Below are positions 3 to 42,268 of a stretch of 64,000 nucleotides of DNA, piece after piece. Position 1 is the first letter of the stretch; each line of letters starts with the position of its first letter. The DNA comes from Amphiscolops sp. MND2022 (taxonomy: Eukaryota): the NCBI GenBank assembly GCA_964187785.1, contig OZ076409.1, forward strand, positions 6,636,001 through 6,700,000, read 5' to 3'. The notes beneath the pieces were generated by a model, which was not told the DNA's origin, ran no database searches, and worked only from the letters and a program-made list of their open reading frames with translations. The position numbers and the translations under genes were made by a program.

Positions 3-1725
3 CATTATGATGAGGAAAACCATGGCCCAAAAAGTAAACGATGTGTTCCCAAAAACTATGAGAAAAATTTGCGAGAAATTACCCCAGTGCACCTAACATT
101 ATGCACAACTGTTGAAGCGCGACTCTTGTCAGACCTTTATGACATAATGAAGCAATTCAAATTCGCAAAATCTCTAACCAGCATTGACAAAACCAATTTG
201 TTTGGGGACCTCATTGCTTATTTGCTGGAATTTTCTATTCCAAAGTGTAGAGATCGCAAAATTTTGAGCATTACAACTCATGCCGTTTTACAAATGGTCC
301 CTCAAATTCAGCACAATAGAAGTTCTAACTCAAGTGACTTGTTAGTCTTGCAAATTGAAGATGAAGCTGGGTACTTGGACAGCTTCAGAATTCCTCACAT
401 TGTTGGAGAAGCAATGTTAATATATTTTGAAGCTGTACGACCGTACTTCATAAAACCTGAAGGTATCGACCAGAAAAAAAGGTTCATGCAGTCACCCAGT
501 CAAGGGATACCACCATATTACGTCATGACGGAGCCATTCTTTGTCAACAGCTGGGGAAAAACACAATTCAAAGTGCGGAACATAAGAAATCGGATTGAAC
601 AGGTAACTAATCAAATACTGTTTGATAAGAATTACTTGACTCAGTTTGATTTGTATTAGTCGATAGTAACCATAAGACATAATCACAAGTTGGAATATCA
701 AAAACATCTTCCTTTTGCAGTTTTCGCTTATTTCAATAACTATCTGCGTGTTCTAGTTTTCCGACTTGACAAGAAACCCAGCCGAACGTGAAATGGACAG
801 ATTGGAAAGAACTGTCAAACTGATGACACTTTCAAAATGTTCAGCAGAAGAAGAATTTTGGTCTGAATCTTACCTGATGATGGAAGTCAAAAAACATTTG
901 AGGCCCAGCGGACATTACGATGACAGAACGGTCATGAAAGTAGTCGAAAAAAGAATTCAAGCACTTAGGCATCAAAGAGCAGATATTAGGGCGGCCGAAT
1001 ACAAGAGCCACTACCCTACATCACTAGCTGACCCTGCGAAAGAAAGAGAGAGAATAATCGATTTTGCAAACTTGGTCAACTGGCCCCACTTCACAGATGT
1101 AAAGAGAGTCATGGATGCTTCTTCTAGAATGTCTGGGGTATCAAGATCTCGACAAAGTTCGCGCAAAAAAGCATTCAATCCAAATCTAGAATGGAGACTT
1201 TGCAATACCCCTTACTTCCAAGATGACTTGAAAGATAGATGCGAAAACCAATTCTGGCCAGGCGTCTGCGATGTTGTCTATCCTACAATGGGTCGAGGAA
1301 TAATCGCGACCAAACCATTTAACAAGGATGACGTTATTTTTGACTACCACGGACATGTAGAAGAAAACACGAACAACGTCGACTACTACTGCAGTCTGGA
1401 CCCAGAGAACCGCAAGCCAGAATACTGCATCGAGGTTAAAACAAGGCCGGGAAGAATTATTGATGCAACCTCGGAAATATGCCCCATCCACAACGATGGC
1501 AGAAGGTGCCTTGCTCGATTGTGCAATTACTCAAGTACCTTTGATGGTGGAAAGACCAACCCAGCTTGTAACATGAAACTGGTCGAATTGAAATGTACAT
1601 ACTTGAAAAATAATCCGCGTTACGTGCTACTTATTGCAAAGCGGAAAATTGAACCCCTGGAGCAGCTGATGTTTGATTACATGGACCCCGAAGCCAATAG
1701 AATTTTCGGCGGTAATGCCGAGTAA
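3..1725 (+). CDS. Spliced gene, 5'-truncated by the window: degenerate tyrosine-recombinase-like domain (exon 3-602) joined to a SETD8/PR-Set7-like SET domain (exon 757-1725)
   Basis: The frame is open from base 3. A phase-0 intron CAG|GTAACT (603) to TTCTAG| (756) joins ORF 69-659 in frame to ORF 766-1725. SET motifs: GRGIIATKPF..DYHG, IDAT, LARLCNYS, LIAKRKI, QLMFDY. The YR-like call (FGDLIAYL..CR, YFEAVRP, FFVNSWG) is weaker. Confidence 0.75.
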
Positions 1726-1814
1726 AACCATTGATAAACTCGAACTTTGTTTTTAACTTATCAGTTTTTATATAATTTTTGTTGGAATATTAGTCATTGT
1801 CATCTAGTCAAATA

Positions 1815-2051
1815 CAGTGGTGATATTTTTAAAAGCAACAAAGCCGCTTCAAAGTCTGCGGCAGGTGAAAAAAAAACTTCAAAGTCATCCCAAAACATGT
1901 ATTTTCGAAAAAATCTTCAAACAAACATATTTGTAAACTAGATAAAAATCTAGAATACGTTTATTTTTATAAGGTTTCATAAACCACTGCCGTTTTAGAG
2001 ATATTCGATTTTGAGATTTGCCTTTTGATGCTCTCAATAATATCACTACTG
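1815..2051. mobile_element. Tc1/mariner-type MITE
   Basis: TA-CAGTGGTGATATT at the left and AATATCACTACTG-TA at the right: inverted termini with TA flanks. Confidence 0.65.
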
Positions 2052-2723
2052 TATATTATCTTCGGGTTTTGTTTTCTTTGTCAATTTTGAATTCAAAATA
2101 TGCCAATGGATATTCCAAAAAGCAGATATCGATTAACACTCTCAAGGAATCATATAAAAGAACTAACTGGGGCAGACGGTCGGATCGTTGAGGAGGCTGA
2201 TTTGATCCCTATCAGTCAAAATGTGCTCCTGGAGAGTGACTTGTTCATCATCGGTCTCAACTTCCTCGTTTCCTGCAGCAACGTAGTCAAACGTGAAACA
2301 TTCGGATTTAGTTTTCCTATTATTCATGTGTTCAAATAGTGGTTGATGAACTGCGGGCATTAGTCAAAACATAGACACATGTAAGATTTCAAAAAGTTCA
2401 TGTTAAAAACTAACTCTGACAGACGGTTGGCTCATCTCTGTCAGTCAAAACGCCGCGGTGTTCTTGAAGAACTGCTTCGGTACTGGCTTCTCTATCATGA
2501 TGAAGGCTTGGCCTAAATTTGGGCTGAAAAAAACAACAAATTTGCCAAATTTACATTAAAGTGGGGTAACCGACAAGGCCTTCCAAAACTCGGGAATCCA
2601 TGGGCACGTTTTGATATCCGTAACCGAATTTCTGGCAACCAAATGAGCAAAACTTTTGAGATTAGAATAACAGTGTATTTCTATATAAGCATTATATTTA
2701 ATTTTTTTTGACTAAGAAATATC

Positions 2724-3082
2724 GGTGAATTCCCAAATAACATAAGAGCAAATAACATAAAAACAAAATTAGTTTCAAATAACATTAAAATGAAATGGGT
2801 TTCACTAAACATAAAAATAAAATTGTTAATGAGAAAATATCAGTGGTCAAAAGCATACACAATTCAAAAGATTCACTGAAAAAAGTGTGGAAATTACAGA
2901 TAAAATTTTCTGAGTTCGATCGTTTTACCGGGTATTCGGTTTTATTTTTATGTTCTTTGACACTAATTTTGTTTTTATGTTATTTGCATTCATTTGTATG
3001 TTTAGTGAAACTCATTTCAATTTTGTGTTTTGAAACTAATTTTATTTTTGTTGTTTGTTCTTATGTTATTTAGGAAATCACC
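2724..3082. mobile_element. Fold-back/MITE-like element with long imperfect TIRs
   Basis: GGTGAATTCCCAAATAACATAAGAGCAAA... is the imperfect reverse complement of ...TTTGTTCTTATGTTATTTAGGAAATCACC over about 100 bp. No clear TSD. Confidence 0.65.
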
Positions 3083-3597
3083 AACGTTTATCAAGAAAAA
3101 ATATTGAAAGCAATTATTAAAACCAAAGTATTAAAAAGCCAACCCTGAAAGTTAATAAATCAACTGATTAACTCTAACCTGTTTCAAATGGTCCGGTAAG
3201 TCGTCTAGTTCAATGTCCAGCTTCCGGATCCGTAAAAGTAACGTTTTTAACATGGCAATGACAATTGAAAACAAATGACTAACTTTTACACGCACAGTAT
3301 CAATATGACCTCATCGGAATATGCGACGAAAGAATTTCGTCCAATCAGAAGCGAGTATTCGGTTTCGTTCATCAAGATTACATGTAGTTTGATCAACAGA
3401 AAAACAAATAAACTTTTGCTCCCGTATTACAACAATCTTACTGATTTACTTGTGCACTTAAATCACTAAAATGGAAGTGAAATTACTTTGAACATTTAGT
3501 AACATTCCACTTCTTGGAGCGTTGACTTTAACAACTGATAAGAACGTTCACACTTTGAAAAAATGGTGAATATCAGAACAATCATTTGATCAATTCT

Positions 3598-3995
3598 CAA
3601 TAAATAAATCAATGACGTTTCACAGGATACCAACTCAATTAATAAATATGAAAAAATCAATTGTTTTGTTATGATTGAAAAAACCTAAACTCATTTTATA
3701 TATCAACTATACTGTTCTTTTGCCCAAAACAAAGAATCCTGATTTTTGATGATTAGATTAATTGTCAATAAATAAATCAATGACGATTCACAGGATACCA
3801 ATTAAATTAATAAATATCAAACAACCATATATATCAATCAAGGTGAATAGTTGAATAAAGTTGTTTCTGTAGTAAGTGTACAACTATCAAACAATTTTTT
3901 GTTATGATTGAAAAAACTTAAACCCGTATTATATATCAACTATACTGTTCTTTTGCCCCAAAACAAAAACGATTCACAGAATACTGATTTAATAA
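3598..3995. repeat. Degenerate AT-rich tandem duplication
   Basis: CAATAAATAAATCAATGACG..TCACAGGATACCAA and TTATGATTGAAAAAAC..TATATATCAACTATACTGTTCTTTT each occur twice. Confidence 0.7.
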
Positions 3996-4789
3996 GTTCC
4001 AAAAAAATGAAATACATCAAAATTACATACTAACACATCATAATATACCTACACATCATAATACATCAAAATATTTGTAATTATCATAATTGCCCGATCA
4101 TAATTGCCATTATATACAAAAGAAAAGAATAGTTAAGTATTAAACAGTATTAAAATAAAGTAAACTAAAATTTATCACGATAATAATCTTGCAGTGATTG
4201 GCCGGAACGAAAAAATTATTAGGGTTATATTCCTGCAGATATCGGCTTCGGAACGAAGATTTTCGTCATTGCCAATTTTATTTGTCCCGCCTAAAATACT
4301 GGGAAAATAATAGTTGAGCTGATATTTCTTAGTCAAAAAAAATTAAGAATTTAATTTGATAACTAAATTAATTTTAACTGAATTAATTTGATAAACCAAA
4401 AACTGAACACTGAAAATCTGCATGTGTAGATATATATTGAGACACTTCCATGTCAAAGCAGTGTATTGAATTGGCCGAAGCGAGTGGCAGATCTATCTAA
4501 ATCTTGAAATTCTTTGAGCAAGCGATGGAATTACTTGCCCAATTTACTCTCATCAACGAGTATGCATGGGCAATTAAAGCCATCGCTCCTGCAAAGAAAC
4601 TCAATACGTAGCTTGTGCTTCCTCGGAAATCAATAGGCAACAGTTTTGGCTGCGAAACGAATGGGCATTTTTGGCCCATACATTCATTCATGTCCATCAT
4701 TTTCCGAGCCGCACAACGAGTAAAATCTGCATTTTCGTTGCCGGTTACCCCACTGTAATGTTATAACTTTGCTTTCTGATAATTTCTTG

Positions 4790-9102: not shown

Positions 9103-9216
9103 ATGTGGGAAAAGGTTACCACAGTAGTACTCATGACAACATACACGTTTTGTGTCTTATTTATAGTTTGTGTTCTTTTTGAAAAAATACTTACGGTGAT
9201 AAGAGACAAACTTTAA
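9103..9216 (+). CDS. 37-aa hydrophobic upstream ORF (possible single-pass peptide)
   Basis: MWEKVTTVVLMTTYTFCVLFIVCVLFEKILTVIRDKL*. The stop lies 2 nt before the gag ATG. Confidence 0.35.
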   Translation: MWEKVTTVVLMTTYTFCVLFIVCVLFEKILTVIRDKL

Positions 9217-9218
9217 AA

Positions 9219-12200
9219 ATGACCACAACAACATTTTTACCTTTTCACACTCCCATCATTAAAAATGCAAAAGTTGTAAAATTAGAACTAAACCTATTTC
9301 TACAAAACATTATTTCACATTATACACAACCACTCCCATTTGAAAATGAACCACACACAATTGAAACAATCCCTCGTATTAGAGAACATTTGGACACATA
9401 CCTTTTCTATATTAGATACAAAGTTTTAACAATCACCGAAGAATACCCAACTTTTCAAATATCCTTTCCTCAACAAAGACTTAATTCATCTCATATATAC
9501 AGAAGAACAATAAACCCAATAAACCTTCAAGTTCCTATTAAACAAGTTTTTCATGCTTTTCTAAATAATGTAAAAGATCACAATTTAGCACACGAAATTC
9601 CAAAATATAGTCCAAATGCACTCGACGATCTTCAACGATACATAGACAATTTCGATGTAGAAATTATTGAAACATTGGTTAATCCTGAAGACAACCCTCA
9701 TCATTGGTTACAAGCTGATATATTACGAATTCAAAATTTCATCTACCATTACTTCAAAGACCTAACATTAAATGACCAAACAATTCCTCAGATCAAAGTA
9801 ACATCTTTATTTCTCAGAAAATACTTCAGATTTAATTATCAACTATTATGGTCTCAACAAGATCAATCTGCTTTTACAGCATTTCCAGATCATTTTACAT
9901 TAGAAGAATGTTTACCATTCATCATCAGTGAACAAAATGAACACCCTTACTTTCATAAACCACAATTACTTACAAAACAAACCTTAGATTACATACGTTT
10001 CGATCCTCTATTAATTACAGAAAATGATCTATTCGCAGATAATAGACCATACCACTATCAACAAAATTCTCAAGATCAACAAAATTTACATTTTAACACT
10101 AACAATTCTACTGAATATGATAACACCGATCAGGAAAACTCAACCCAACAACAAAGTCAACCTGAAAACTATAACGATAATGAGTTTACTACCCAAGAAT
10201 CTACAATCTCAACACATAATCCATCACAAACAGGGACATCAACATCAGTACATACTCACTCCTTTAGAGTTCCCACTAGAGTTGTAAATCAAAGACAAAA
10301 TATACATAGTCCTCAATCTCATTTAGATACATCTCCAAACCGTAATATAACTTTTAACCTTCCACATACAGATGACATACACGATGAAACCCATGATACA
10401 TTACAATATGATACTATCACTACATCTAGTGCTCAGAATACTTCTGCTAATGTTGCATCTCCAACAAGAACTACCTCTGATTCTACAAGATACATTACTC
10501 GACCTAGATATGATCCTCCATCAATCCCCTCCGCCTTTCGCTCAAACAGATCGACCACTTCTAGCAACAATTTTAATGATAATCCTCAAACTTCCAACCG
10601 ATATTACGATCCATTTAATTATAACTTTCATCCTCCATCAAATACAACTAACAATACAAATACCAACCAACACCACTCTCAAATTAATACAATTTCAACA
10701 ACACAAAACCCTTTCATACAATTATCAAATACCAATACGTCCCAGAATATATATTCTCAAAATCAAGGAACCTCGTATACTTCCACTTCTTATTCTAATA
10801 TTACACAGGATTTTCAAAGAAGACTTCATAATCCTCCACGTACACATATCCCAACTGATCCTCTGTATCGAACGCATCCAAATCCAAATCTTAACCCTAA
10901 TCCTAACCCATTACCACCAAATACAATCCAACATATACCTCCACCACTCACACAACAATTCACTTCTTCACCCCAATATCTACCAATGCCACAAGATACC
11001 TTTATAAACATGTCCGCTTCAATACCAGAACCTATGAAACCTTTTGATGGTTTGGACCATTCTTACACCCCCGAAGAATATCTACAACAAGTCGAAGCAA
11101 GATTAACCTTCGCCATAGGTGAAGAACCTCAAAATAATCCTATAAAATACAAATCTTGGCATAATAGACGCATGGCTTACATACAATGTTCATTAATAGG
11201 AACAGCTCTCGCATGGTACACTAACCTCCATATATCATATAAGCAACAATGGAATTCCTTTGTACAACTATTCAAAAAACAATTCTCATCTCAAAAAACT
11301 GCTTACTACGCTCAAGTAGAAGCTATGTCACTCATGAAAAAGGATAATGAAACAGTTCGCCACTTCGCCCTTAGAGTACAACAATTAGTTAAAAAGGGAT
11401 GGTGTAATGAAAATGCAGCTACCATAAATCTCAAAAATAATGAAATCTTTACAAAAGGGTTACCAAAGAAGTTAAAAGATTTTGCCCATAAACGACAAGT
11501 TAAACATGTATCAACATTACTTGAACCTTCAATACCATTTCATACACTTGTTAGACATGTCGATTCTGAAGATATTGCTAATGAAAAAATTAGAACTAAC
11601 GACTTAGCCCTAGAAATAAACAAAGTATCGCTTGAAGATGATACTAACAAAAAAGAATTTGAACATGAAGATCAGATAATGATTACTCAAACTGGAGACC
11701 CAAATAACAAAAGCAAACCAGCGTATAGAAAATATTGTTCCTATTGTCATAAAAATAATCATAGTATTTCAAATTGTTATCAAAAACAACGTGATGACGA
11801 ATACCAGAAATACAATAACCAAAGATCACGAACTCCTCAACAATCCTTTGTACAATATTTTCGCAGTAAACCTAATAATCCTCAGGAAAATCGAAATGAC
11901 AATACAAACTCTTACTCCTCAGATAATGATCGTAATAAAAATAATCAAAACTACTATAATGATAGATACAGAAACAATGATAGATATCGTAGCAATAGTA
12001 GAGAATTTTCGCAAAACAACTATAGATCAAACTCTCGACAAAGATATTATAATCGATCCCGAAGTCCGTATAGATCTCGATTTGATAATTATTATCAAAG
12101 AAGAACTCCATCTAGATCTCCATATAGATCTCCATACAGAAATAACTCAAATTACAGATATAATTCTCGCTCAAGATACAGATCTCGTTCTCAATCACAA

Positions 12201-15200
12201 GGAAACTCCTTTAAACGATATAATTATCCATATAGATCTCCATCAAGACCTAGAGATTTTAGATCAAGATCTAGAACACTCTCAAGAAACAGACAACAAA
12301 ACAGAATAAATCAAGTAGACGTTAAATCTCCAAAAGAAAATGATAGTACAAAATTTGAAATCCACACCTGTCAAATGACTGAAATAGCTAATACAATCAC
12401 CCCTTATAGTTGGTTTTATCCACTATATATTCACGCTTCTGAAACAAATGACAACATATTACCTTCAAAATTAGAAATCTTATTCCTTTTAGATACTGGA
12501 GCTTCCATATCTGTTTTGAATTTACCAACATTTCATGTAATTTCCAAACAATTAAACATCAATGTTCCAACCAACCTCCAAAACAAAAGAGCCAAAACTC
12601 TTACAGTTGCAAACCAAACTGAAGTACCAATAATACATTATATTTCGATGACCTGTTTCACTGAAGTAAATCACAAAACACGATCCTTCAATATCGATTT
12701 TGCCGTAGCAAATATCAAATACAACATTCTTGGAACACCCTTTTTCAAAAAGCACATCCAAAATATTGATTTTCAACAAAACATTATGACGTACACAGAA
12801 CAACATCCAAAGCTTTCAACAAAAACTACATTTTCCACATTTACAGAAAAAGATTACCCATATATTTCTTACATTTATACTATTAAATGTAAGGAACCAA
12901 TTCACTTTAAACCAAGGTCAGGAAAAACCATACATTTTCCAATTAAAAACTATTCAAATCTACATTTTGAACTCGAAGATAATACGAAATTCTACCCAAC
13001 AAACCCATATACATATTTCTTACAAAAATTTAAAAATATCTTTCATTTCTTAGATATGATAGTCAATGAAAAAAGCAAAGACTCATGTGCAACCATAATT
13101 CAAAACTTTACATCTTACCCAGCTACATTACCACGAGGAATTATTGGATATATAGAAATACCTATTACGCAAACAACTCCTCCTCACTACAGAGTTACCG
13201 ATGTAAATTCACTTATTCACTCTGTAATACATGCATATCACCCTGATACCACAACCCCGATTAAACAAAATCCATATACAGATATGAACTTATGTACTAG
13301 GGTAATACCACAATCCCTATTAGAAAGAAACAAGATAGAAATTAACGACAAAACACTTCAACTTCCTATACCTTCTGTTACTGGAAACCTTCGACCTTCA
13401 GATAAATTTCGAAAAGATTTCCCTCCATTACCCTATTCTACAGAAAACCAACAATTCATAAAGAAGTTCAATTTCGAATACTCAGTTTTAACCGATACAG
13501 AATATGTAAATCTCTGCAATATTCTAATTATTAACCAAAATTGTTACGCTAAACATAAAAACGACGTAGGAAAGATTTCTACTCCCTTTCGAATTAGAAT
13601 AAAAGATAATTGTAAACTTCACACACAAAGACCTTCTAAAGTACCTATCCACTATAGAGATAGACTAAATAAACTTTCACTAGAACTCGAAAAATACAAC
13701 ATCATAAAACAAATTGGTTCGACAACAGATGAAAAACATACTATTGGAACAACATTTTTAAACCCTTTAATTATTATCCCAAAAGGAGACGCAATAAAAG
13801 TTGTTTTAGACGCAAGACATTTAAACTCAAACACTAACCAAGAACTTGAATCTTGGCCTATTGAACCTTTAGCTCCTCAATTAGCTAGAGCTAATAAAAA
13901 ATACAAATCAACTATTGATCTAATGTATGCATATGCTCATACACCATTAGATGAAGAAACAATTAAACTTACAGGATTTTCATCCGGTGACAAATTATAC
14001 GCCTTTATCCGTGGATTTTACGGATTAAAAGGACTTCCAAACTTTTTCACAAAACAAATGTCAACTTTCTTTAGATCACTTATAGACAAACGTTCTGCGT
14101 TAGTTTATATAGATGATATTTTATTACTCGCGAATGAAAAACAAGAAATGTTTGAACTTATAAAAGAATTACATACAATAGCATCTCGAGAAAATCTCAA
14201 ACTTGCACCTGAAAAATCGTTCTACATGTTACTCAAAGTAAAATTCCTTGGACATGAAATTGGTAACAACACAATTAAACCAATTCCATCCAAAATTGAA
14301 GCTATTAAAAGACTACCATCCCCAGAAGAAAAGAAAGATGTTATGCAATTTCTTGGCAGTGTTAACTTTTATTCAAAATTCATTGAAAAACTTCATATAA
14401 ACCTTAAACCATTGTATACATTACTACACGATGATGTTAAATTTCAATGGACACCTGAATTAGAAAAACTATTTCAAAATGTTAAAAACGCAATGACAGC
14501 AGACATTGAATTAACAATACCCAACACCACGCATCCATTTTTCATAACAGTAGATGCTTCGTTAGTAGGTTTAGGCGCAGTCTTATTCCAAATGAACGAA
14601 GAAAATAAGATGAAAGTAATCTCTTATAACTCCAGAATTCTCAATACACAAGAACAAAAACTTTCAACTTTAGACAGAGAACTTTTTGCAATAGTTTACG
14701 CATTACAAATATATGAATTTTTGATCATTGGATCTCCTCATCCTATATATCTCTTCACAGATCACAAGCCTTTACTACATTGTTTCGCAAAGAAAGGAAA
14801 TCTTAGTCCTAGATTCTATAGAGCACAAATGCAACTAACCAAATTCTCCAAATTAAAAATCATTCATACCCCTGGAAAAAATTTAACTGTAGCAGATATG
14901 CTTTCAAGAACCTTTACAAAAGAACAGCTACAAGTACACCAATTACGACATAAACAATTACCACCTCAAATAGATTTCTCTATCATGAAAGATAATCAAC
15001 TCAAACCAGTACATTATTTAGTAAAACATGAAGAAATAAAATATAATCAAAAGAATGATTGTCATCCTATCCTTGCTGACTACGGAGACGACCAATTCTC
15101 CATCCGTATAAATAACACAGGAGAAGATATACATATAAAGCCTTTAGATTCCTTCTCTTTTCAATCTATTGTTCCATTCGAATCAAAATATAAAAAGCCT

Positions 15201-17251
15201 ACAAATAAACAAGCAAAATCTCTTTTACAACAATCGACAATTCTTATTGATACTGACAATCTTGGTGATGAAGATGAAATAACACCATCAAATAATATCC
15301 AACAACAAAACTCGAACATAGTAAAAGAATACACCCTTGCTATACAATATCCTACCAAATCTGACTATTGTAAACAACAAGTTCCATTTTTGATCCATCC
15401 TTTTTCAAATACAAAAAATATTTTAATTACTTCTTCCTACCAGAAGATACACAAATAACCATTGAAACAATAAAAGCTCAACAAAATCAAGATACTGTTT
15501 TACAAAAGGTTTACCAATGGATACTTTATAATGAAAGACCCTTACAAATAGACCCAACAATTGCAGCTAACTCTTTCTTATTAGTATATTACAAACTCTT
15601 CAACCAATTATATTTTAATCATGATACAAAAATTATCCACATAGATTATCCTAATCTTCACGATTCCAACCCGAATCAAAGAGACAAAATATGTCTACCA
15701 TTTAAACTTTTCCACACAGCTTTTAACAAACTTCATGCTCATGGACATTCAGGAATAAAAATATCCATCAAAGCTTTCAACCAATTTTACTTCATACCGT
15801 ACCTGAATAAATGGATGTCAATATTCATCCATGATTGCATTGAATGCCAACAAAATAAACATATTAACCAAAAATTACAAACTGCATCTATACAAACCTT
15901 CTCAGAAATTGCTTCATATTTTAATTACCGAATATCAATGGATACAAAAGGACCTATAAACCCACCATCAGATCAAAATTCGTACATTCACGTTATAGTA
16001 GACGCTTTTAGTCACTTTGTAGTAACAGTACCTATGAAACAAAATAATGCTCAAAACGCTGTTAACTCATTACTACATCATTGGATAACAAAATTTGGAC
16101 CTCCTGTATACCTAGTTACCGACCGTGGAACAGAATATATTAATTCAGAATTTGCAAATCTTTGTACCACAATGGGAATTAGACATTCACCAAGAACTCC
16201 TTATGCACCATGGACAAATGGTTTAGTTGAAAATCAAAACAGAAATCTTGGAACTCATCTCAGACTTTTCTTACATAACACTCCAGAAAATTGGTCAACT
16301 CAAGTCCATATGTATGCTTATGCACATAATTCACAACCACTTTCTGAATTAAACTTATCTCCATATGAAATAGTATTCCATACTATACCCAGAATTCCAA
16401 TCAACTTTGAACTCAATCTCCAAAGAGATACATATAGAAATTGTTCTTCTCAATATTGTCAAGAATTACCACTTCATACACACTATGACAAATCAAATCT
16501 AAACCCTTTCTTTCATAAAATTTTATCTAAACCAATTCCACAATGGATCTTGGCTACTGAAACTGCTTTGATACAGATATACCATACGGTATATGAAAAC
16601 ACAAAAAGAAAGATTAATTCCTATGCTTATTTTAACAAAACATATCACAATCCAAGACCCTTAGATATTGGTAAATTTGTACTAAAAAGAAATTTTCTCC
16701 ATGTTCATTTTTCCGATAAATTAAAACCTCTCAGAATTGGCCCATTCAAAATTATTAACAAACTCTCCGATATAACATATGAAATTGTTAATCAAGATGG
16801 TTATACATCGCACATACATAGAAATCATTTAATTCCTTTTCATCCAAAAGAACCAGTTATTTTCCCTTTCATACAACAATATAACCCTCATTTATTTAAT
16901 GACTGTCATTCAAATACAAACGATCAAATAATTAACTCTGATGAAGACAAATTTACAGACGAAGAACAATTTCCTTCCACAACATTTAATAAAGAAACGG
17001 ATATACCATCCACGATTGACTTACAACCAGAACCATTTAACCAATATTCTTCATTTCCATCTAAACAAAAAGAACAAATTCCTCAAAATACCTCCATGGA
17101 TAACCAATCAGATATTCATGATTATGATAATTTTATTAATCCCCGAAGGCACTCCTATAATAGATACAATTTCCGCCCACAACCAAGAAAAGACTACCGA
17201 CTCTTCCTTGGTGAAAAGGATATAATTTCACTTTCTCAAAAATCCTGCTAA
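9219..17251 (+). CDS. Gag-Pol polyprotein (about 2680 aa) with a single frameshift near 15387-15391
   Basis: Capsid-like region from PMKPFDG; zinc knuckle CSYCHKNNHSISNC (11736); protease LLDTGAS (12492) and ILG; RT YIDD (14106); RNase H TVDAS (14553); integrase HAHGH..CIEC, D-D-E (MDTKGP, TDRG, GLVE) and GPF motif. The second frame is open from 15392 to 17251. Confidence 0.95.
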
Positions 17252-17420
17252 AATACGGAATACAGAAAGAAATACACACAAAGAAAGTTTGAAAGAAAGA
17301 AAAAGTTTGAAGCTTAATGCGAAAATAAATGAAATTTATTTCACGAATGAGAATAAAAGAAAGAAATCTTAATTGATATAAAACTATAACTATTTTACAA
17401 GCTGAAACTAACTATCATAA

Positions 17421-18890
17421 CACAACGATTTCAAAATTGATAGACATATTCACTCACCATCATCAACTACAAATAATTCTTCTTCTAGTTCAACACATTC
17501 ACTCCAAAGATTACCTGAATATACAGCATATTTAAACTCAGATACAGACATACTGGATTCCTCATCCTCAAATCCCAGTCCATCCGCTCCATATACTCCT
17601 GATAGAGTACCAATAACACCCACTAATACACATATAACCCAAACTCAACCACTAATATTAACAACTCAATCACAACCTATTTCACGAAATCTAACATTTT
17701 TAGAAACAAATTCACCACTTTCTGACTCTAATGATGAAACACCTACAATACCAAATACACAAGATACTTCAGATATTTTGAATAGACCTCCTCTTCCACC
17801 GATTACTACCACTCGTTCTATTCATATCCCTGATCCTAGCTCAGTCCTACAATACATAAATTCTTGTCCACACAAAGTACCAACTGCAACAAAAACAAAA
17901 AGAAAAACTCCTTTACCTACATTACCACAAAATCTTGATTTACCATCATCAAGTAATATCCCAATAACATTTTTACCAGAACCTTTATTGAAATCACCAA
18001 CGAAAAAATCACAACAATACCCAACTCCTTCACCATCGGAACTAAGTTCCTTCACATTTTCTCAAATATATCCCAAGCTTGAATTACAACGTGTACATTC
18101 AACAACTACCTCTTCATTAACAGATTTATATCATAAAGATAAAGACTCTGACTCAACTGCTAGTACTAGAGTACCAAGACATAATTAAAACCTTCGATCT
18201 CAACAACAAAGAGATTCTCAAGAATTACAATCCTTAACTAGTTCAAGTACAAACTCAAGACTACTTCGACAACACGCCCAACCCAGATTGGACACTTCTT
18301 CTCTTTCCTCATCTCAGCCCACTATACCATCTTCTCTATCACTACCATTTCAAATCACATCAGGATTTGAAACAGCCTCTCTTCTTTCTGAAGAGCCAGC
18401 AACTATATCAGATAGCGCAGCTAATTTTTCACGAGTTTACTCACCTAGTTCAATAGCATCAAACTCTTCTATACAATTACCTGAATATTTTTTAGAAGAA
18501 TTCTCAAGACCTCCATCGCCAAATCCTCACGAATATCCTATTCGTGTTAACTCAAAAATTGTTCACACGCTTGACGAAGATCCTCGATACACGGTATTAC
18601 CTGCAAGATTTATAAACAATAGTTCACTCTCAACTCAAAGAAAACAAAGAGAACTACGAAGATTACAAGAACAACAACACACATTAAAATTTGAAGTAGA
18701 AGTCACATTCAACTCGTTAGGACCTCATCCATTCTCACTTTCAACAAGAGTAGCACATAAAACAACCCCATCACCATTCATTGTTACCTCCATTTCCTAC
18801 CTTTGTGACGCAGATTTACCTGAGATTAGAACAGGACATATAAACTTTTTTAATCCCTACTCAGGACTCAATTATGGATCAATATTTTAA
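17421..18890 (+). CDS. Accessory Ser/Thr/Pro-rich ORF between integrase and env, with one internal TAA (18186)
   Basis: ORFs 17778-18188 and 18288-18890 share a frame that is open from 17421 apart from one stop. It has no ATG and a more ordered C-terminal segment of about 100 aa. Confidence 0.6.
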
Positions 18891-18892
18891 CC

Positions 18893-21532
18893 ATGAACCA
18901 AATCACCTTTACCTTTTATTTAATATATATAATACAAGTTGTTAAATACACGTATATAATAAATATAGTTCACTCTTTAGTTCACCCTTCAACTGTTCCC
19001 AAAGTTGACACCACCAATTCCGAAAATCATATTTCAGACCAAGATCCTAACATTTTAAACTTAATGGTATCTCATTATGATTGTGCAAAACAAAATAACT
19101 TAAGACAATTCAGTTTATTAAATGTAGAACCATGTAAACAAGCACCCTCAGATATACAACACACAAAAACCCAAGCAACAGTTTATGTTAGAGCAAAAGC
19201 CAAAAGAATAAAAGCCTTTAAATGTGAAGCATATATAAAGACTGAGAATGTCTGGTGTTCACAAACATTCACATCTAGTAGACGATATGATCGTTTACAA
19301 TGGGGACAAAACACATTAGAACTTCCAAAAATATTGGACCCTATTGAATGCAAAAATATGATCAGATATTTAAACGCGACTGATAGCGAAGAATTAAACA
19401 ACTACAATATACAAAGCTCTTTCTCATTGTTCGACGATAGTAATTATCAAAACACAATTGAACGAATTCAGACACCATTTAGAGTAAAAAAATCAAATAC
19501 ATGGCATATTGGAACCTTCGTATTTGACGAAAATTATCCTGATTGGATAGTTAATGTTACACAAAATACATACTCTAGATGTCGATCAGACCGCGAACAT
19601 TTAATTACCCGACAAAGTTGGAAACTTAGAATTGTTAACACCGCAATAGATTATGACGATAAAAACAATCAATTATTACATGACGGACACATATTACCAT
19701 GTTATCATTCAGACGGATTTTGTAAACCAACGACCAAAACTCCATATACATTAACATGGTTTGATGAAAAATTTTGCCTCATATTTCAACTTCAAGAATT
19801 CATTGGTAGAATGACACGAATCAAAGATAGATATTGGATGGAAACCGATACCTTCATTGAAACTTCAAACATCACACAAAAACTTCAAACCGAAGGAATA
19901 CAAGGAACAAAATACCCTAATATAAAAACACCACAATCAAAAGTAAGCAATCCAAGCCTTTCTCGATTTGAAATATACCCAATTGCACAAACCTTCTGTG
20001 GAAAACCTGAACCATTACTTTCAACACAATATGATGACATCTTTGTTACATACTTAGATGGTTTTGATATGAATACAGGATTACCAAAACCACACTCAAT
20101 AATTGACCAAACAATTAGTGGAAATATAAAACATGATGATTCAAACAAATGGTATATATTCCCTGCATTGAATATATCAAACAATTTCGCCACTTTAGAC
20201 TATGATGCCCACATTAATACAAAGATTGATTTCACAATAAATCATGTATTTAAATCCATGACAGTACAAGAACTAAACACTCTTCATACAATATGTGAAC
20301 TAAAAAGAACTCAACTGTTAACAATACTAGCAATGTCAGTTAAAAATCCTCAATTAGCCGGTTTTCTTTTAACTGGAAATCGTAGTAACTGTCTCTACGT
20401 TGAAGGATCTACAGCATGGCTGTATGATTGCCCTCATTTTATATCACCACTATACAAGGCAGATAAAAGCTTTGATAGAATTCCTATACACTACAGAGAA
20501 ACGATAATGTATGTTGACCCAATAACAAGACAAACTTTTAACTACGCAACACCAATTGAATGTGGAAATAACCCACAAAATATAATAGAATTAGATCCAG
20601 ATTCCAACGACGGAGATTTTTATGTGTTAACACCAGAACCACTCAAACGAGAAGCACCACAAATGTTTAAACCTACCCAAATTAAAACAACAATCACTCC
20701 TAATACATTTACCGCCCAAGATGCCGGTATATACTCAAATGCAGAATTAGATCATTTCTGGAATAGAGTATTATTTGCTAAACATTCAGACACAACTCTT
20801 CAATTACTTGGAAAATCATTAAGCTATGATTTCATTTCAATGCATAATGAAAAACACTCATACTCAGGACATAATCCCTATAATCATTCAGGGATTGGAG
20901 TACATGACCACTTGTTGAATCTTTTACCACTTTTTAACCCTGACTGGTTCAGTCAAGCATTCATTAATTTCTTTGGATACCCATGTTATGTCTTAACCCA
21001 ATGTGGAGTTTATTTTTCAACATTCCTTTTCATTAGAGAAGTTTTAACATTTTTACTCAAATTCTACAGAACAATTAGCCAAAAATATAATCTCGAAAGC
21101 AACATTTCCATTTTGAGTTCAATAGCCCATGGATTTTTTAATATAGTTACATCGGAAATGGTAACCGATTTAAATAATACAGGAAAACGAAAACGGATAT
21201 ATACTAAACACAAAATTACAACAAGTGAAAATGATAATATCCTATTGCCGGAAAAAGAATTAAACAATAAACGAAGACACTCTGATACTGACTCCCCTCA
21301 CTTACCTCCTAAATATTCCAGTAAGAATTCAACATTTCAATCACCGCAAAAGACACACCCAACTAATGTAAACGATATTAATTCTCAGGACTATGACCCA
21401 ATAATGTCAAATGTAATAGTGGTACCGGAAAGTCCTGCTAAAGTCTTTATAAAATTTAATCCCTCCTTACTGAAAAGCAATAATTTAGAAAACAAATTAA
21501 CCTCAGAAAAAATTCACAAAATTATCAACTAA
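18893..21532 (+). CDS. env: Envelope glycoprotein, 879 aa, resembling chuvirus-type/class III fusion proteins
   Basis: N-terminal hydrophobic signal; Cys-rich ectodomain (HYDC..FSLLNVEPC..AFKC..VWC..ECK; ICELKRTQLLTILAM..NPQLAGFLLTG; YVDPITR..PIEC); N-glycosylation sequons (NAT, NVT, NIT, NIS); C-terminal TM segment and cytoplasmic tail. Confidence 0.88.
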   Translation: MNQITFTFYLIYIIQVVKYTYIINIVHSLVHPSTVPKVDTTNSENHISDQDPNILNLMVSHYDCAKQNNLRQFSLLNVEPCKQAPSDIQHTKTQATVYVRAKAKRIKAFKCEAYIKTENVWCSQTFTSSRRYDRLQWGQNTLELPKILDPIECKNMIRYLNATDSEELNNYNIQSSFSLFDDSNYQNTIERIQTPFRVKKSNTWHIGTFVFDENYPDWIVNVTQNTYSRCRSDREHLITRQSWKLRIVNTAIDYDDKNNQLLHDGHILPCYHSDGFCKPTTKTPYTLTWFDEKFCLIFQLQEFIGRMTRIKDRYWMETDTFIETSNITQKLQTEGIQGTKYPNIKTPQSKVSNPSLSRFEIYPIAQTFCGKPEPLLSTQYDDIFVTYLDGFDMNTGLPKPHSIIDQTISGNIKHDDSNKWYIFPALNISNNFATLDYDAHINTKIDFTINHVFKSMTVQELNTLHTICELKRTQLLTILAMSVKNPQLAGFLLTGNRSNCLYVEGSTAWLYDCPHFISPLYKADKSFDRIPIHYRETIMYVDPITRQTFNYATPIECGNNPQNIIELDPDSNDGDFYVLTPEPLKREAPQMFKPTQIKTTITPNTFTAQDAGIYSNAELDHFWNRVLFAKHSDTTLQLLGKSLSYDFISMHNEKHSYSGHNPYNHSGIGVHDHLLNLLPLFNPDWFSQAFINFFGYPCYVLTQCGVYFSTFLFIREVLTFLLKFYRTISQKYNLESNISILSSIAHGFFNIVTSEMVTDLNNTGKRKRIYTKHKITTSENDNILLPEKELNNKRRHSDTDSPHLPPKYSSKNSTFQSPQKTHPTNVNDINSQDYDPIMSNVIVVPESPAKVFIKFNPSLLKSNNLENKLTSEKIHKIIN

Positions 21533-36722: not shown

Positions 36723-39700
36723 ATGGGAAACAGGAGGAATCAAAGGTCCAGAAGGTTAAAGACCCCGTCCCCACAGAGAGAAACAAGTGAAATACGTGTT
36801 GAAACTCCAAGTCAAGGTAGTGAAACTTTAACTAATGTTATTTTGCAAAGTCAAGAAAATTCAGGTGAGGTTGATTTGAGACCCAGAATAACCGAACCCA
36901 GCCAAGTCAGGAATGAAATTCAAGCTTGGACCGAGATTATCGATTAGAAAAACAACGATAGGATTACCAAGATGAGAGAAGAAATGGAGAACAAACTAGA
37001 TGCAATTCTGTTGGAGATAAAAACCAGTAAAAGCACATCTATCACAATTAATCCTAGATCAGAGAAGAACGAAATTGGAAACATGCCACCATCGGGATCC
37101 GTGGGTAAAAAATTTATGGGAGTAAACGCATCGGATAATGAACGTTTAGTCTCTGAAAACGAAGATATCCCCCTCAAAGCCTCAGAAATGAGAGAATTAA
37201 GGCATCCCGCTAAACCTATACACCAGAATGATACAACATTAGACGCAGTTTTCTTTAACGAAGAATCCGATGAGGAGGATTATCACATGGTGAGAGGAGC
37301 CAACAAACCACTCCATAGACAAAGCTCTCAAAACACCCAGCTTCTAAACGACACCTTAGGATCGCACACAGACCGCAACACTTCCACATCCACGACAAAA
37401 CCACTTGACCCGGTCAACCAAATTGCCCAAGCCATAGATGAACTAGCAAACAGAAACTGAAAAATTTGAATACTTTGAAGACCTATTCCACACAACCTTC
37501 AAAATGCAACCAAACCTCACAGAAGAAATGAAGATTAACCACTTTCACGCACATCTCAGAGGATTGGCGCTAAAAACCAGAGGATAGAAGAAATACCAAT
37601 GCCGTTACTGCAAAGATGCCAGCCACATGATGACTGACTGCCCTAAACTAGCTAAACGGCGAAAACTAGAAGAAGACCCGGATGCATCTAAATGTCCCAA
37701 TTGGAAAACCCCGGGCCATGACGAAAAAGACTGCTATTTTGGTTCCAATATGGATAATAGACCACCAAAATGGAACCTAACTGAAGCACAAAAGAAAGTT
37801 ATCGAAGAATACAAGCGAGCTAAAAGCCAATCAGATCAAGAATAGAACGAAACCAACAATCCTCGTCGAAGGATTTGAACTAGAAACGCCACGCCTTTAC
37901 ACAAAATCACCACAAAAACCAAACTCAGCCGATGACTGGCAGCATCATCTGAGCATAAAACCCACAAAATCACCAGCTTTTGACACTGACTCAACAACAC
38001 AAAAGTCTCAACAATCAACACTGAAAACTTCACCCGAAGAACTATACGAACTTTTTCAAGATGCACCAGAAAATTACTTCACAAAACAACCAACCCACCC
38101 AACAAACCACTCAAACTCAGATAGTCACCACAAAACTCTCATTAAAAACACATACAATTCGACAAAGAACGAAATTTGTCCTATCTTCCAATTTCAACCT
38201 CTTTGACATTGAAGCGAAAACGCCACATGTACTACATTCCAATGGACTTCGAAAAACTCACACTTGATGATCTTATAGATACCGGAGCCCTTACAATTGC
38301 AATCTCCGAACAAGATCTCAATAAAATTAAAATGCCAGCAAATGAAGCAGTAAAAGAAACTGGTCCTCCACCAAAATTTCAAATTATGGTGGCCAATGGA
38401 CAACTAGAAATCCCAATTGGTACAGTTCTACACGAATTTGAAGTGGCCGACTTCATGTTGAAGGAAAATTTCGTCATCATGAAAAACCTACCAAACCCGT
38501 TAATCGGATTGTGCATCCTTCGCAGGAATAACGCAATTTTTGATGTCAACCAAGGCATCCTAACATTCCCCTATATTTCAATGCAGCTCAAACATGACAC
38601 CCAAACATCAATACAACAAGCAATACCATTGTTTGCTGAAAACACATATACCTTACAACCAGACGAAACTCTCACCATTGCAAGCAGAATTCCCCATCTG
38701 ATGGATCATGATGCAACTGGAATAGTACCCCATCACAACAATTTGAAAACAACGATAGCATTTTCATCACTGCACCACTCAGTACTGTCAACAACATTGC
38801 TATCGGATACCAAATCATTAATTTTTCTGAACTACCATATACAGTAAGCCTTTATACCCGTTTAGCGGAGTTCGAGATACTGACACCAGAGCAAATCAAA
38901 CATATACAGCAGCCAGTAGATCCAGCGTTACTGTCCTTCATGATACAACATGCGGAAACACCGGAAGTCTTTATAAATGAACTCCTCAAAGTCCCAAAAC
39001 CCAACTCAGAACAGGATACATACTGGTTCCCTACCCCTGAAGAACCAGGCGATCCAGCAATATACACTCCAATTCAGCAACGTATGTACAATGAATTCCT
39101 CGAACTCAAAGAACTCGAGAAGCTAAACCCACATGATAATGAAGCTTCCAGAAAAGAATTTCAAAGTTCGACTGGACAGACACAACACTCAGCCCAGACG
39201 AACAGAAAGGAATTGAAGAAATTCTTATTGAATTTCAGTATATTTTTGCCAGACACCGGTTTGACATTGGCAAAAATTGTGAATTCAAAGTCAAACTAAT
39301 GCCAAACGATGACAGACCTGCCTACAGCCAAAGTATGCCAACTCCTGTTAACCTCAAAGATGATATCACAGTAGAACTTGCACTTCTGCACAAGTGTGGT
39401 ATCATTACAACTCTACCTTTTTCTAAATACGCCAGCCGAGTTGTTGCACAACGCAAACCCAACGGGCGCCTCAGACTCCTGGTTGACCTACGAAAAATCA
39501 ACAACCTCATCACCGAAGATTATGTCAACAACAACCACCAGGTAAGCACTTTGTCGGATGCCGCACAACACATGCAGGAAAAAAGCTTTTCTGCAAATTG
39601 GACTGCTCCCAGGCTCACCACTGCCTTCAGATGGTTGAACACCAATCCATCCAAATGCTCGCTTTCAATTCAGCAAGTAGAACATTTCCTTATCGTCGCC

Positions 39701-42268
39701 TTGCCCAGGGTCTCAGCCGATCACTTTCTGCATTTTATGAGAAAATACCTGGACAGAGCAATTAAAGCGGACCAATTTGCACAGTATGTCGATGACATTG
39801 GCATTGCAGCAAATGACACAAAACAACTGTGTACAATTATCAAAACTGTTTTTGAATGCATACGCAATGCAGGACTAAAACTCTCCAAGTCAAAATGCCA
39901 CTTCGGAGTCAAACAAGTCAACTTTCTGGGACGCACAATCACACCAGACGGAGTAGCCCCTCAAGTCGACAAAGTGAAAGATTTCCTCTCAAAATTTGGA
40001 TTTCCCAAATCAAAAAAGGCGTTACAGAGGTATGTCGGATTTTTAAACTATTAACGAAACTACATGCCACGCTTTTCGGAATGGCTCTCTCCATTCTTCA
40101 AACTCCTCAAAGAAACTTCCAAATTCTACGTACCAACAAATTTGGTAGAAGACTTCATAAACCTCAACAAAGTATTAGAAAATTCTTGCCAGTTAGCATT
40201 AAAACAACCACTGAAAAACAAGCAATTCATAGTCATGTCCGATGCAAGTTTCACAGCAGCAGGATGTGCTATCATGATCGAAGACGACCCAAACCAGAAG
40301 CTCCAATCCAAACGCAATACATATGCACCCATAGCTTTTGGTTCAAAAACTTTCAATCCAACACAGACAAAAATGGCAATTTATTCGAAGGAATTTCTCT
40401 CCATATACTTTGCATTTGTCGAATTTGGACACCTCATGTGGGGTAGTACCTTCCCAGTAATCGTGTTCACAGACAATCGTACAGTAACCCAATCTTTCAA
40501 AACAAAAATGACCCCTCCAGCACTTTGGAATGCCTGCGATTATGTCTTGCAATACAATTTCGTGATCGCCCATGTAGCTGGAACAATGAACACCGCTGCC
40601 GACTTTTTATCCAGAACGGAAGTGGATCCAACTGAAAAACTGGAAATGACTATCCGCAATGATATTTACACGGAAGCAATTGAAGATAATTTTGAATCAT
40701 CCGGCATCGTCGAAGAAGAACAAATCTATGTTCTCCCAGATGATGAAATCGATGAAAATCAGTTATGGGAAGAAAAACAAAATATTCGGAAGCAAGCACA
40801 AACCGAAACACACAATGATCCAGAGAACGTTGTTTCTGTACTACAACAACTTCACAAACCCACATCAGGACTGATCTCCCGCTCCTCAGTCTACTTTAAA
40901 GACAATGCAAGAATCCGCCTTGAGCAGAATAACGACATAGTCCTTAGAAACCTGAGAGCAAAAATAGAAGGAAACCCTTCTGATGAAAATGAACTGGCAT
41001 CAGACTACAGATACCAGCACTACTTACAAAACATCACGCGAACAGAGATAAAACAGGAAGTCCTCACACGTAAATACTACACCGACACTGGAACCATATC
41101 TCACTACCAAATCCTTCTACCAATCCAACTTCTAGATGAATTCCTTCAAGACTTACATGGTCAAAATTCAAACAACCCAAGAATCATAAAAATGATTCAA
41201 GAAGCCCTACAAAAATATTACTACCCATGTATGGCAAAATACATCAAAAAATTGGTTAGAAATTGCCAAATCTGCATCCAAACAAAACGCATAAACAATG
41301 ATCTCCTAAGGACAGAACTCCTTAATTGTCCGGAATGGGATCTTTGACCGGAAGACATTTTGCAAATGGATATTTTACCAAACCTCCCCCTAGTGGAGGC
41401 TATGACCATATCATCACAGCAAAAGATGTCTTCTCAAAATACTTGTTTGCCTACCCTGTAACTCGCATTACTGCCACAGAAGTATCAAGAGTCATGATGG
41501 ACATCCTATGCAAACACAAATACCTTCCAACAACGATAATCACAGATATAGGCACTCAATTCAATGCACAAGCAACTCATGAAGTTGCAGCAGTACTTGG
41601 AATTGAGTTGAAACACGCCGCGATGAAACATGCCCAAACAATAGGACTCCTTGAGAAACCCAGCGAAAGCAGCTTGAAACGACGGATTACTGCTACATTA
41701 TTAACTCACACACACGACAAAAAGACCCTTTCGAGAAATCAGATGGTGCGGACCATATAAAGTAGAAAAAGTACTCCCTAACAATAATTACATTGTCCGG
41801 AATCTTGGGACTAACAAAATGCAACTACTACACAGGATTCGTTTGCAGAAATTCTCCCCGCAAGCTCCATTAGCGGACATTTGTGTTCGTGAAACTGATT
41901 GGCAAACCCCTTTGACAATGGTCCTTCAGAATATTCACAAGATACCGAAGACACAGAATACATCCCAATTCAAACACCCAAAGAAAACCGCCCACCCTCC
42001 CCTGGCCCTTCAAAAAATAGTGGGGGAGCCCAATGGAATAGACCATGAAAACCATGAAAATGAAATACCACAGCAAATCATTGAACACAATCAAAGTACC
42101 CAAAAAATTCAAAAAGAATCAAATAATTCACTTGATGATGATATCCAAAAAACCCCAGAATACTCCCAAAATACCCCTGTGCAAAAAGAACCCAAAATTA
42201 CTCGTGGTGATAAATACAACTTACGTCCTAACCCCAACCCAAATTACTCTGACACATATAGATATTAA
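36723..42268 (+). pseudogene. Frameshifted gag-pol of the second Gypsy element
   Basis: Knuckle CRYCKDASHMMTDC (37600), protease LIDTGA, RT LVDLRKIN and YVDD, RNase H MSDAS, integrase H..CQIC and TDIGTQF, all broken by stops, frameshifts and deletions. Confidence 0.93.

Follow-up and report, generated by a model that had tools for sequence, protein, structure and literature searches.

The 64,000-nucleotide stretch of DNA analysed here (the window) comes from Amphiscolops sp. MND2022 (NCBI GenBank assembly GCA_964187785.1, contig OZ076409.1, positions 6,636,001 to 6,700,000 of the forward strand), and its first 4.8 kb form the right end of a giant mobile element. In our assessment, this element is probably an 18,645-bp cut-and-paste transposon with an accessory gene of 753 codons, whose last two exons lie at positions 3 to 1725 and which encodes a catalytically dead recombinase fold joined to a SET domain. 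The protein most likely has four parts, namely a Ser/Thr/Gln-rich N-terminus, half of a recombinase-type fold (~170 residues), a helical linker and the SET domain. Transposons with chromatin-modifier accessory genes are already known; what appears to be new here is the fusion of SET to a truncated recombinase fold. A search of the full-text literature found neither a fusion of a recombinase fold with SET nor a transposon carrying SET together with JmjC; Repbase was outside the scope of this search, and such an element could be catalogued there.

Open reading frames (ORFs) were called from stop to stop in the window sequence with the standard code. The reading frame of exon 1 (3-659, + strand) is open at the 5' end of the window, and the upstream 1.5 kb (L002) lengthens exon 1 to an open frame of 458 aa, whose Met at L002:808 lies 691 bases ahead of the first window base. 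The 3' part of exon 1 that lies within the window (3-602, + strand) accounts for 200 of its 431 codons. Exon 2 (757-1725, + strand; stop TAA at 1723-1725) encodes 322 aa, comprising a helical linker (aa 1 to ~170) and the SET domain, and the two exons together give the predicted gene of 431 + 322 = 753 codons. They are separated by a GT-AG intron of 154 nt in phase 0 (603-756, + strand), with the GT at 603-604 (CAG/GTAACT) and the AG at 755-756 (TGTTCTAG/TTT). Since 154 nt equals 3n+1, the frame of 3-602 and the sequence from 757 onwards read on in phase. Only acceptors followed by 100 or more open codons were considered. Seven were found in the window, and the acceptor at 756 alone keeps the full 322-codon exon 2; the next, with an intron length of 403, leaves 239 aa. 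A nearer acceptor-like CAG at 718-720 was ruled out, as its frame runs into TAG at 754-756.

The 200 exon-1 residues of the window, used as query against the 1.07-Gb genome, gave 155 matches, some of them in families that are only ~30% identical. One paralog family (L024-L028) carries both domains in the same order in single uninterrupted ORFs of 503-680 aa, with a Pfam SET match and with no intron at the position of the window's intron. In an alignment (A2), exon 1 and exon 2 of the window map onto two parts of these ORFs, and the linker motif VMKVVEKRIQALRHQRADIRAAEY in exon 2 aligns with V..AVR.RQDQQRY.RQSARA of the paralogs. In all five split loci examined (the window, L029, L030, L031 and L032), a GT donor in phase 0 occupies the homologous position of the alignment (ACG/GTAAAA in L029, TCG/GTATGT in L030 and L031, TCG/GTGTGT in L032), and in L030, L031 and L032 the downstream frame is regained by pyrimidine-rich CAG acceptors. 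Because the single-ORF paralogs keep the domain order and the donors are homologous in each of the five loci, the arrangement is more than chance, and the predicted splice fusion of 3-602 to 757-1725 is very likely real. The first ~230 residues of the protein are rich in Ser, Thr and Gln and contain 36-bp (12-residue) coding repeats.

The segment at 102-602 (+ strand; model residues 34-200) appears to correspond in fold to the first half of the catalytic domain of tyrosine recombinases and type IB topoisomerases, and no catalytic residues were recognised in it. An AlphaFold model of exon 1 (mean predicted local distance difference test value (pLDDT) 78.7, predicted template modelling score (pTM) 0.74) was compared with all 48,161 representative PDB chains. 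The 19 best matches were all tyrosine recombinases or integrases, type IB topoisomerases or recombinase-fold regulators. The matches include the Xer proteins XerH (score 8.8, 114 aligned residues, root-mean-square deviation 3.1), XerD (8.6 and 8.4) and XerA (8.4), bacterial topoisomerase IB (7.8) and human topoisomerase I (7.5), as well as Cre (7.3), MrpR (6.9), Tn1549 integrase (6.8), IntI (6.7), QRICH1 (5.5) and SroF (5.2). A second structural search with the model of a paralog likewise gave proteins of the recombinase or topoisomerase-IB fold as its first seven matches. The two models are ~24% identical, and with 114-131 residues aligned the match extends over all of the domain that was modelled with confidence. 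Both searches agree that it ends at about model residue 200, corresponding to XerD 232-237, XerH 294-303 and Cre 270-277, a point which we take, by the numbering assumed for these enzymes, to precede the part that bears the His-x-x-Arg, the His/Trp and the nucleophilic Tyr. Residues 201-311 of the paralog model form long helices with no recombinase match, and neither the paralog alignment nor the structural match contains an HxxR, His/Trp or Tyr block after the matched half.

An alignment of exon 1 with 15 relatives from four families (A1) showed F67, H93, Q97, Y141, R146, F149, T176, F179, F180, V181, N182 and F189 to be invariant. R146, the only invariant Arg, lies inside the helix 132-149; the columns that we presume, by comparison with XerD, to correspond to the catalytic Arg (R83, R85) and to the hairpin Lys vary among the paralogs. 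The conserved pattern of a helix, a beta hairpin, a Y..VRP.F helix and FFVNS.GK..F presumably follows the order found in Xer recombinases. Pfam revealed no Phage_integrase or DUF3504 match for exon 1 at E<=1 or for the paralogs at E<=0.01, and neither phmmer against the PDB nor a profile of 16 paralogs detected a recombinase. The best PDB and profile matches of exon 1 (arginine decarboxylase 0.12, CoREST 0.4, Mfa1 1.3) were treated as chance. The 24 PF12012 (DUF3504) matches of the genome sit at other loci, and hhalign of A1 against one genomic DUF3504 copy of 450 bp gave a probability of 0.1%, a weak comparison, as this copy may hold only the missing half. Searches of a collection of 5.8 billion proteins detected 10 homologs of exon 1 and 22 homologs of the A2 profile, all of them close.

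A preliminary description of this DNA had proposed a recombinase-type fold without HxxR and Tyr motifs, with which the structural matches to Xer proteins and the lack of such blocks after the matched half agree. Its further assignment of the domain to the Crypton type is not upheld, given that no Phage_integrase or DUF3504 profile matches, that the hhalign probability is so low and that the best folds are bacterial and archaeal Xer proteins, not QRICH1. Nor can its statement that the Arg is kept be maintained, in view of the location of the sole invariant Arg and the presumed variation at the R83 and R85 columns.

The SET domain occupies aa 179-308 of exon 2 (1291-1680, + strand) and was identified by Pfam with an E-value of 2.5e-08 and a score of 34.7 bits, above the gathering cut-off of 22.4; the corresponding scores of the paralogs are 25-43 bits. 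A PDB sequence search revealed SETD8/KMT5A as the closest solved relative (6.3e-05, ~22-32% identity), and a search for longer homologs of exon 2 in the 5.8-billion-protein collection found none. Alignment with SETD8 displayed an insertion of eight residues, ICPIHNDG (1477-1500, + strand), after IIDATSE, with C-P-I-H at 1480-1491, and paralog families keep this insert as EICP(L/V/I)HP..C. Other parts of the SET signature, namely GRG, FDYHG, the Asn and the C-terminal F-D-Y (1672-1680), are kept as well. The position ahead of D-Y governs the number of methyl groups that SET domains add. It is a Phe in the window protein, as it is in the top PDB chains, which are titled SET8-Y334F. The cofactor motif reads RLCNYS in the window's family, with N-Y at 1525-1530, versus RLANHS in other families, and N-Y was found in the window and in all seven other copies read. 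SETD8/KMT5A lacks the C-P-x-H insert and has Tyr334 and N-H, whereas the window protein has the insert, Phe and N-Y. Two further claims of the preliminary description are borne out by these comparisons: that a 154-nt GT-AG intron fuses two ORFs in frame, for which the in-phase join, the homologous donors and the single-ORF paralogs speak, and that the second ORF holds a SETD8-like SET domain with a CPIH insert after IDAT, as the Pfam match and the alignment with SETD8 indicate.

The element that contains the gene is 18,645 bp long and extends from window position -13,884 to 4760, the window holding its right 4.8 kb only. Its DNA is 99.2-99.9% identical to three other copies, in pieces of 3.6 to 12 kb, with the same end bases in each copy. 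Downstream of the fusion gene follows the presumably non-coding 3' part of the element (1726-4737, + strand), which contains short AT-rich tandem repeats, and the identity between copies runs to 4760. The right terminal inverted repeat (4738-4760, + strand) is 23 bp long and perfect and ends in ...CCCCACTGTAATG; the 23-bp perfect terminal inverted repeats of the element are CATTACAGTGGGGTAACCGGCAA. Adjacent to it lies the right copy of the 2-bp target-site duplication, TT (4761-4762). Matching 2-bp flanks were found in 12 of the 12 copies with both ends located (TT, CT, TA, AT, GT, AA, AA, AG, TA, AT, AA and AT), and two further copies were not scorable for the target duplication. The 200-aa segment of exon 1 is present at 100% (rounded) identity at 25 or more loci and at 94% or more at 35, near full length; the 468-aa exon of the transposase candidate occurs at 99-100% identity at 19 loci and the JmjC ORF at 99-100% at 28. 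Reading frames are intact in the copies read, and the window's family is the youngest and most numerous seen in the exon-1 search. Judged from its sequence, the element is a cut-and-paste-type DNA transposon that was recently active. Because identical copies share ends and 2-bp duplications, the gene is transposon-borne and not domesticated. The preliminary description had left both options open; the first is supported by the position of the gene inside a multi-copy element with inverted repeats and target duplications, and the second is contradicted by at least 25 identical copies in such units.

The ends of the element also bear on its classification. A Tc1-like reading (TA duplication, CAGTG ends) was rejected, as CATTA/TAATG is constant and the outer 2 bp vary and are pairwise matched in all 12 copies. 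Ends of the form CATTA...TAATG with 2-bp duplications agree with the pattern used for the CACTA/Mirage/Chapaev/Transib/Plavaka (CMCT) group (5'-CA..TG-3', 2-5 bp). According to the available text of Kojima (PMC12730594), elements of this group have mostly 5'-CA..TG-3' ends and 2-5 bp duplications, and PlavakaB has CATCA..TGATG ends and 2-3 bp duplications. We infer from its CA...TG ends, its duplications of 2 bp and the RAG1-family clusters to which a language model weakly points that the element is a member or a relative of this group. The motif CTCGGRAA is found at three sites within the 110 bp at the left end of the element and at two within the 140 bp at its right end, but also at four internal sites; this weak signal might possibly mark a subterminal binding site.

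From left to right, the element carries gene A, the transposase candidate, the JmjC ORF, tandem arrays, a 304-aa ORF and the fusion gene. The transposase candidate lies outside the window on the + strand and consists of four ORFs (141, 267, 468 and 216 aa; ~1,000 residues), whose order matches that along single ORFs of other families (881-1,017 aa, 38-49% identity). Its last piece is a BRCT domain (Pfam BRCT_2, 2.9e-06). Among 1.84 billion protein representatives, its profile detected 577 relatives at E<=0.001, 179 of them at 1e-30 or better; the BRCT tail was present in 6 of 20 library relatives scanned, and no other Pfam family was found in the 20. Its language-model neighbours include RAG1-domain clusters (0.89-0.92), which is a lead only. 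The conserved blocks DIWGDG, SGDxPF, CPDxxHxxxRxxE and H..E..EKSNH have a spacing without obvious fit to the CMCT group; the block HLCEG.EKSNH...R.FQ..TMRGGG is one that we take, by eye, to resemble the RAG1 segment around E962.

Gene A (L013:6800-8425, outside the window, - strand) consists of two ORFs of 216 and 270 aa, and its paralogs are found as a single ORF of 429-450 aa (L030:4906-6255, L024:656-1942). Neither Pfam nor a PDB profile search gave a match for gene A. Its language-model scores do not exceed 0.78, with one Tudor/Agenet match at 0.76; by eye and from this one weak match, its N-terminal half looks like tandem barrels of the Tudor/Agenet type.

The JmjC ORF, also outside the window (- strand; Pfam 1.1e-09), keeps the HxD...H and is closest to KDM2A (3.4e-18), followed by PHF8 (2.1e-17) and KDM7. 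JmjC ORFs that are 33-42% identical to it (206 aa; ~400-620 aa) are present in many identical copies in other repeat families, so that histone-demethylase-like genes are seemingly carried by several mobile families in this genome. The tandem arrays (L009:5499-8054, window -4501 to -1946) adjoin the JmjC gene and consist of 8.3 units of 237 bp and three units of 298 bp. They are traversed by minus-strand ORFs, and their copy number varies among copies of the element, one of which has a much longer array. The 304-aa ORF (L009:7871-8782, window -2129 to -1218, - strand) runs out of the arrays and is divergent from the fusion gene. Its C-terminal part is rich in Cys and His, and the tandem repeats encode an acidic part; no family match was found for this ORF, which possibly adds a fifth gene to the element.

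Four divergent families, which differ in gene order, all contain the transposase candidate together with gene A and the fusion gene. Paralogs of the transposase candidate lie 8-14 kb from paralogs of the fusion gene on C7, C2 and C529, gene A adjoins the fusion gene in other families, and L034 and L036 hold all three genes within 10 kb in two further orders and orientations. Identities among the four families are 24-31% for the domain labelled X and 38-49% for the transposase, with a protein difference of 50-75%. The window's family additionally carries the KDM2/PHF8-like JmjC gene. As the three genes stay linked in four families so divergent, the fusion would be a long-standing, selected component of these elements and not a recent passenger.

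The closest parallel to the element appears to be the giant Plavaka of red algae, an EnSpm/CACTA-lineage element, with the transposases compared by description only. As far as the available text of bioRxiv 10.1101/2025.02.11.637652 describes them, these elements are 17.4-19.1 kb long and carry a DDE-type transposase and three accessory genes, namely a DNA-methylase-SET, a 2-oxoglutarate (2OG) oxygenase beside tandem repeats and one unknown. They resemble the present element in their giant size (18.6 kb here), in the pair of SET and oxygenase and in the arrays beside the oxygenase gene. However, their SET is described as joined to an N6-adenine DNA methylase (PF01555), whereas here it is joined to half a recombinase fold and no PF01555 match was seen. 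Their oxygenase is described as weakly recognisable with a ParB-like N-terminus, in contrast to the clear JmjC near KDM2A/PHF8 found here, and the BRCT tail of the present transposase candidate is unlike what is described for them.

HarbingerS and MuDR, with target duplications of the 3-bp and 9-bp types, belong to other superfamilies. Like the present element, they are DNA transposons with a SET histone methyltransferase as accessory gene; such genes are listed for HarbingerS and MuDR of oomycetes (Repbase Reports 2014, cited in PMC12730594) and for Helitrons and HarbingerS (cited in bioRxiv 10.1101/2025.02.11.637652), and the available text of PMC12730594 reports no recombinase-like domain for HarbingerS and MuDR. 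That chromatin regulators can contain a recombinase domain devoid of catalysis is known from the Crypton-derived, inactive tyrosine-recombinase domains (DUF3504) of KCTD1, KIAA1958, ZMYM2-4, QRICH1 and WOC, as outlined in the accessible part of PMC3212892. As described there, these proteins are encoded by single-copy host genes and contain the whole domain, whereas in the present case half of it is detectable, in a transposon-borne gene and with no sequence similarity to DUF3504 detected. The fold described here would be a second, independent case, after DUF3504, of a tyrosine-recombinase fold reused without catalysis. SETMAR (Metnase), as far as the available sources describe it, is similar in that SET is spliced to a transposon-derived DNA-binding/nuclease module; it is, however, a host gene with a captured mariner transposase, whereas here the fusion is mobile and its partner is a recombinase fold and not the transposase of the element.

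Tentatively, the gene product could act as a self-targeted chromatin writer. The recombinase half that was matched here touches DNA in recombinases, and the dead fold would likewise bind DNA and serve as a module that targets DNA or the element. Guided by it, the SET lysine methyltransferase would reach nucleosomes on or close to the element or at its target; the element would thereby set its own chromatin state and either counter host silencing or control transposition, and marks would be taken off by the JmjC protein. Substrates of the KDM2/KDM7/PHF8 group are H3K36me2, H3K9me2/1 and H4K20me1. As SETD8 writes H4K20me1, a pair of writer and eraser is conceivable. The effect may go in any of three directions, which are anti-silencing, self-limitation or target choice.

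A broader reading, which we regard as doubtful, is that of a giant cut-and-paste superfamily whose conserved core genes include its own chromatin kit, consisting of a SET writer on half a recombinase fold, a JmjC eraser, gene A as a possible reader and the transposase candidate with its BRCT tail. If true, the kit would write and erase histone marks on the element or its target sites, and the element would decide its own epigenetic state. The kit would then be an independent counterpart of the SET/2OG-oxygenase cassette of the red-algal Plavaka, and the half recombinase fold a new type of DNA-targeting module, derived from a recombinase by truncation. Transposons are usually regarded as targets of host chromatin silencing, and carriers of anti-silencing or chromatin genes include VANDAL, TET/JBP-carrying fungal elements, SET-carrying HarbingerS and MuDR and the red-algal Plavaka. 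Here, one element of a young and seemingly active family combines a writer (SET), an eraser (JmjC) and a transposase candidate with a BRCT tail, which would offer a directly testable system for the manipulation of histone marks by mobile DNA.

Several points weigh against the interpretation of the gene as a functional fusion of a recombinase fold and SET in a cut-and-paste transposon. Splicing is deduced from sequence comparison and expression is presumed, no sequence profile ties the exon-1 domain to any recombinase family, and we only infer that the recombinase-like domain binds DNA and that SET methylates lysine. With N-Y in place of N-H, the SET domain of the window's family may be weakened or inactive. 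Apart from the BRCT tail, four full-length paralogs and 20 library relatives of the transposase candidate gave no match in Pfam, neither phmmer nor a 22-sequence profile found a PDB match, and its superfamily placement is therefore tentative, with no catalytic residues recognised. Pfam PF12940 (RAG1) found nothing in the genome; the control genomes were also empty, and this result is hence uninformative.

The recombinase-like part might not be recombinase-derived at all. An unrelated alpha/beta domain could superpose on recombinases by chance and might serve to contact other proteins, such as the transposase candidate, gene A or histones, instead of DNA. We consider this unlikely, as the 19 best matches of one model and the first seven of the paralog model all have the recombinase or topoisomerase-IB fold, the match covers the entire confident part of the domain and the conserved sequence pattern presumably follows the Xer order. 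A SET domain that is dead in the window's family is improbable to a similar degree; the protein would then serve as a scaffold or decoy or compete with a methyltransferase of the host. RLCNYS in the window and in all seven other copies read, against RLANHS in other families, speaks for such a loss, and regulatory inactive SET proteins are described in the available part of PMC12886896, but the remaining SET signature is kept. As the family is the youngest and most numerous, the change to N-Y has not halted its spread. In a further alternative the fusion gene is a passenger, that is, a host gene or fragment which the transposon captured (transduplication) and which does nothing for it. Accessory genes of transposons are frequently captures, several transposon lineages have captured SET genes according to the available texts of PMC12730594 and bioRxiv 10.1101/2025.02.11.637652, and the nearest solved relative of this SET is a cellular enzyme, SETD8. 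In four families with rearranged orders, however, the two-domain gene has remained intact and in linkage with both the transposase candidate and gene A, which argues for long co-inheritance under selection and makes a mere passenger rather improbable; an ancient capture followed by co-option by the element would be compatible with the preferred explanation, an accessory gene with a dead recombinase fold and SET. Hardly credible, finally, is a domesticated host gene or a recombinase-like domain that itself moves the element in the manner of a Crypton. Cryptons are moved by their own recombinase and are not known for the inverted ends and target duplications typical of cut-and-paste elements, so that the 23-bp inverted repeats and the 2-bp duplications found in all 12 scorable copies argue against a Crypton element. 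Host regulators do contain inactive recombinase domains derived from Cryptons (DUF3504), as stated in the available text of PMC3212892; yet the gene described here has many identical copies, in units with inverted repeats at their ends and target duplications around them, the structural matches did not reveal the half of the recombinase domain that bears the active site, and the DUF3504 matches of the genome are located elsewhere.

Outside the transposon, the window contains a large retrovirus-like element with long terminal repeats (LTRs; 9183-21532, + strand), which has a gag-pol ORF of 2,091 aa (Retrotrans_gag, RVT_1, RT_RNaseH) and an integrase ORF of 625 aa. An additional 892-aa ORF of this element (18854-21532) matches PF24664, the Monjiviricetes fusion glycoprotein (1.1e-22), which points to an env-like gene of the negative-strand-RNA-virus type. 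The region of the LTR element displays a strong negative GC skew of -0.25 to -0.40. Parts of another LTR retroelement, with aspartyl protease, RVT_1, RNase H and integrase zinc domain, together with an endonuclease fragment of the long interspersed nuclear element (LINE) type, are present at 38146-41347 (+ strand) and 61860-62618 (- strand).

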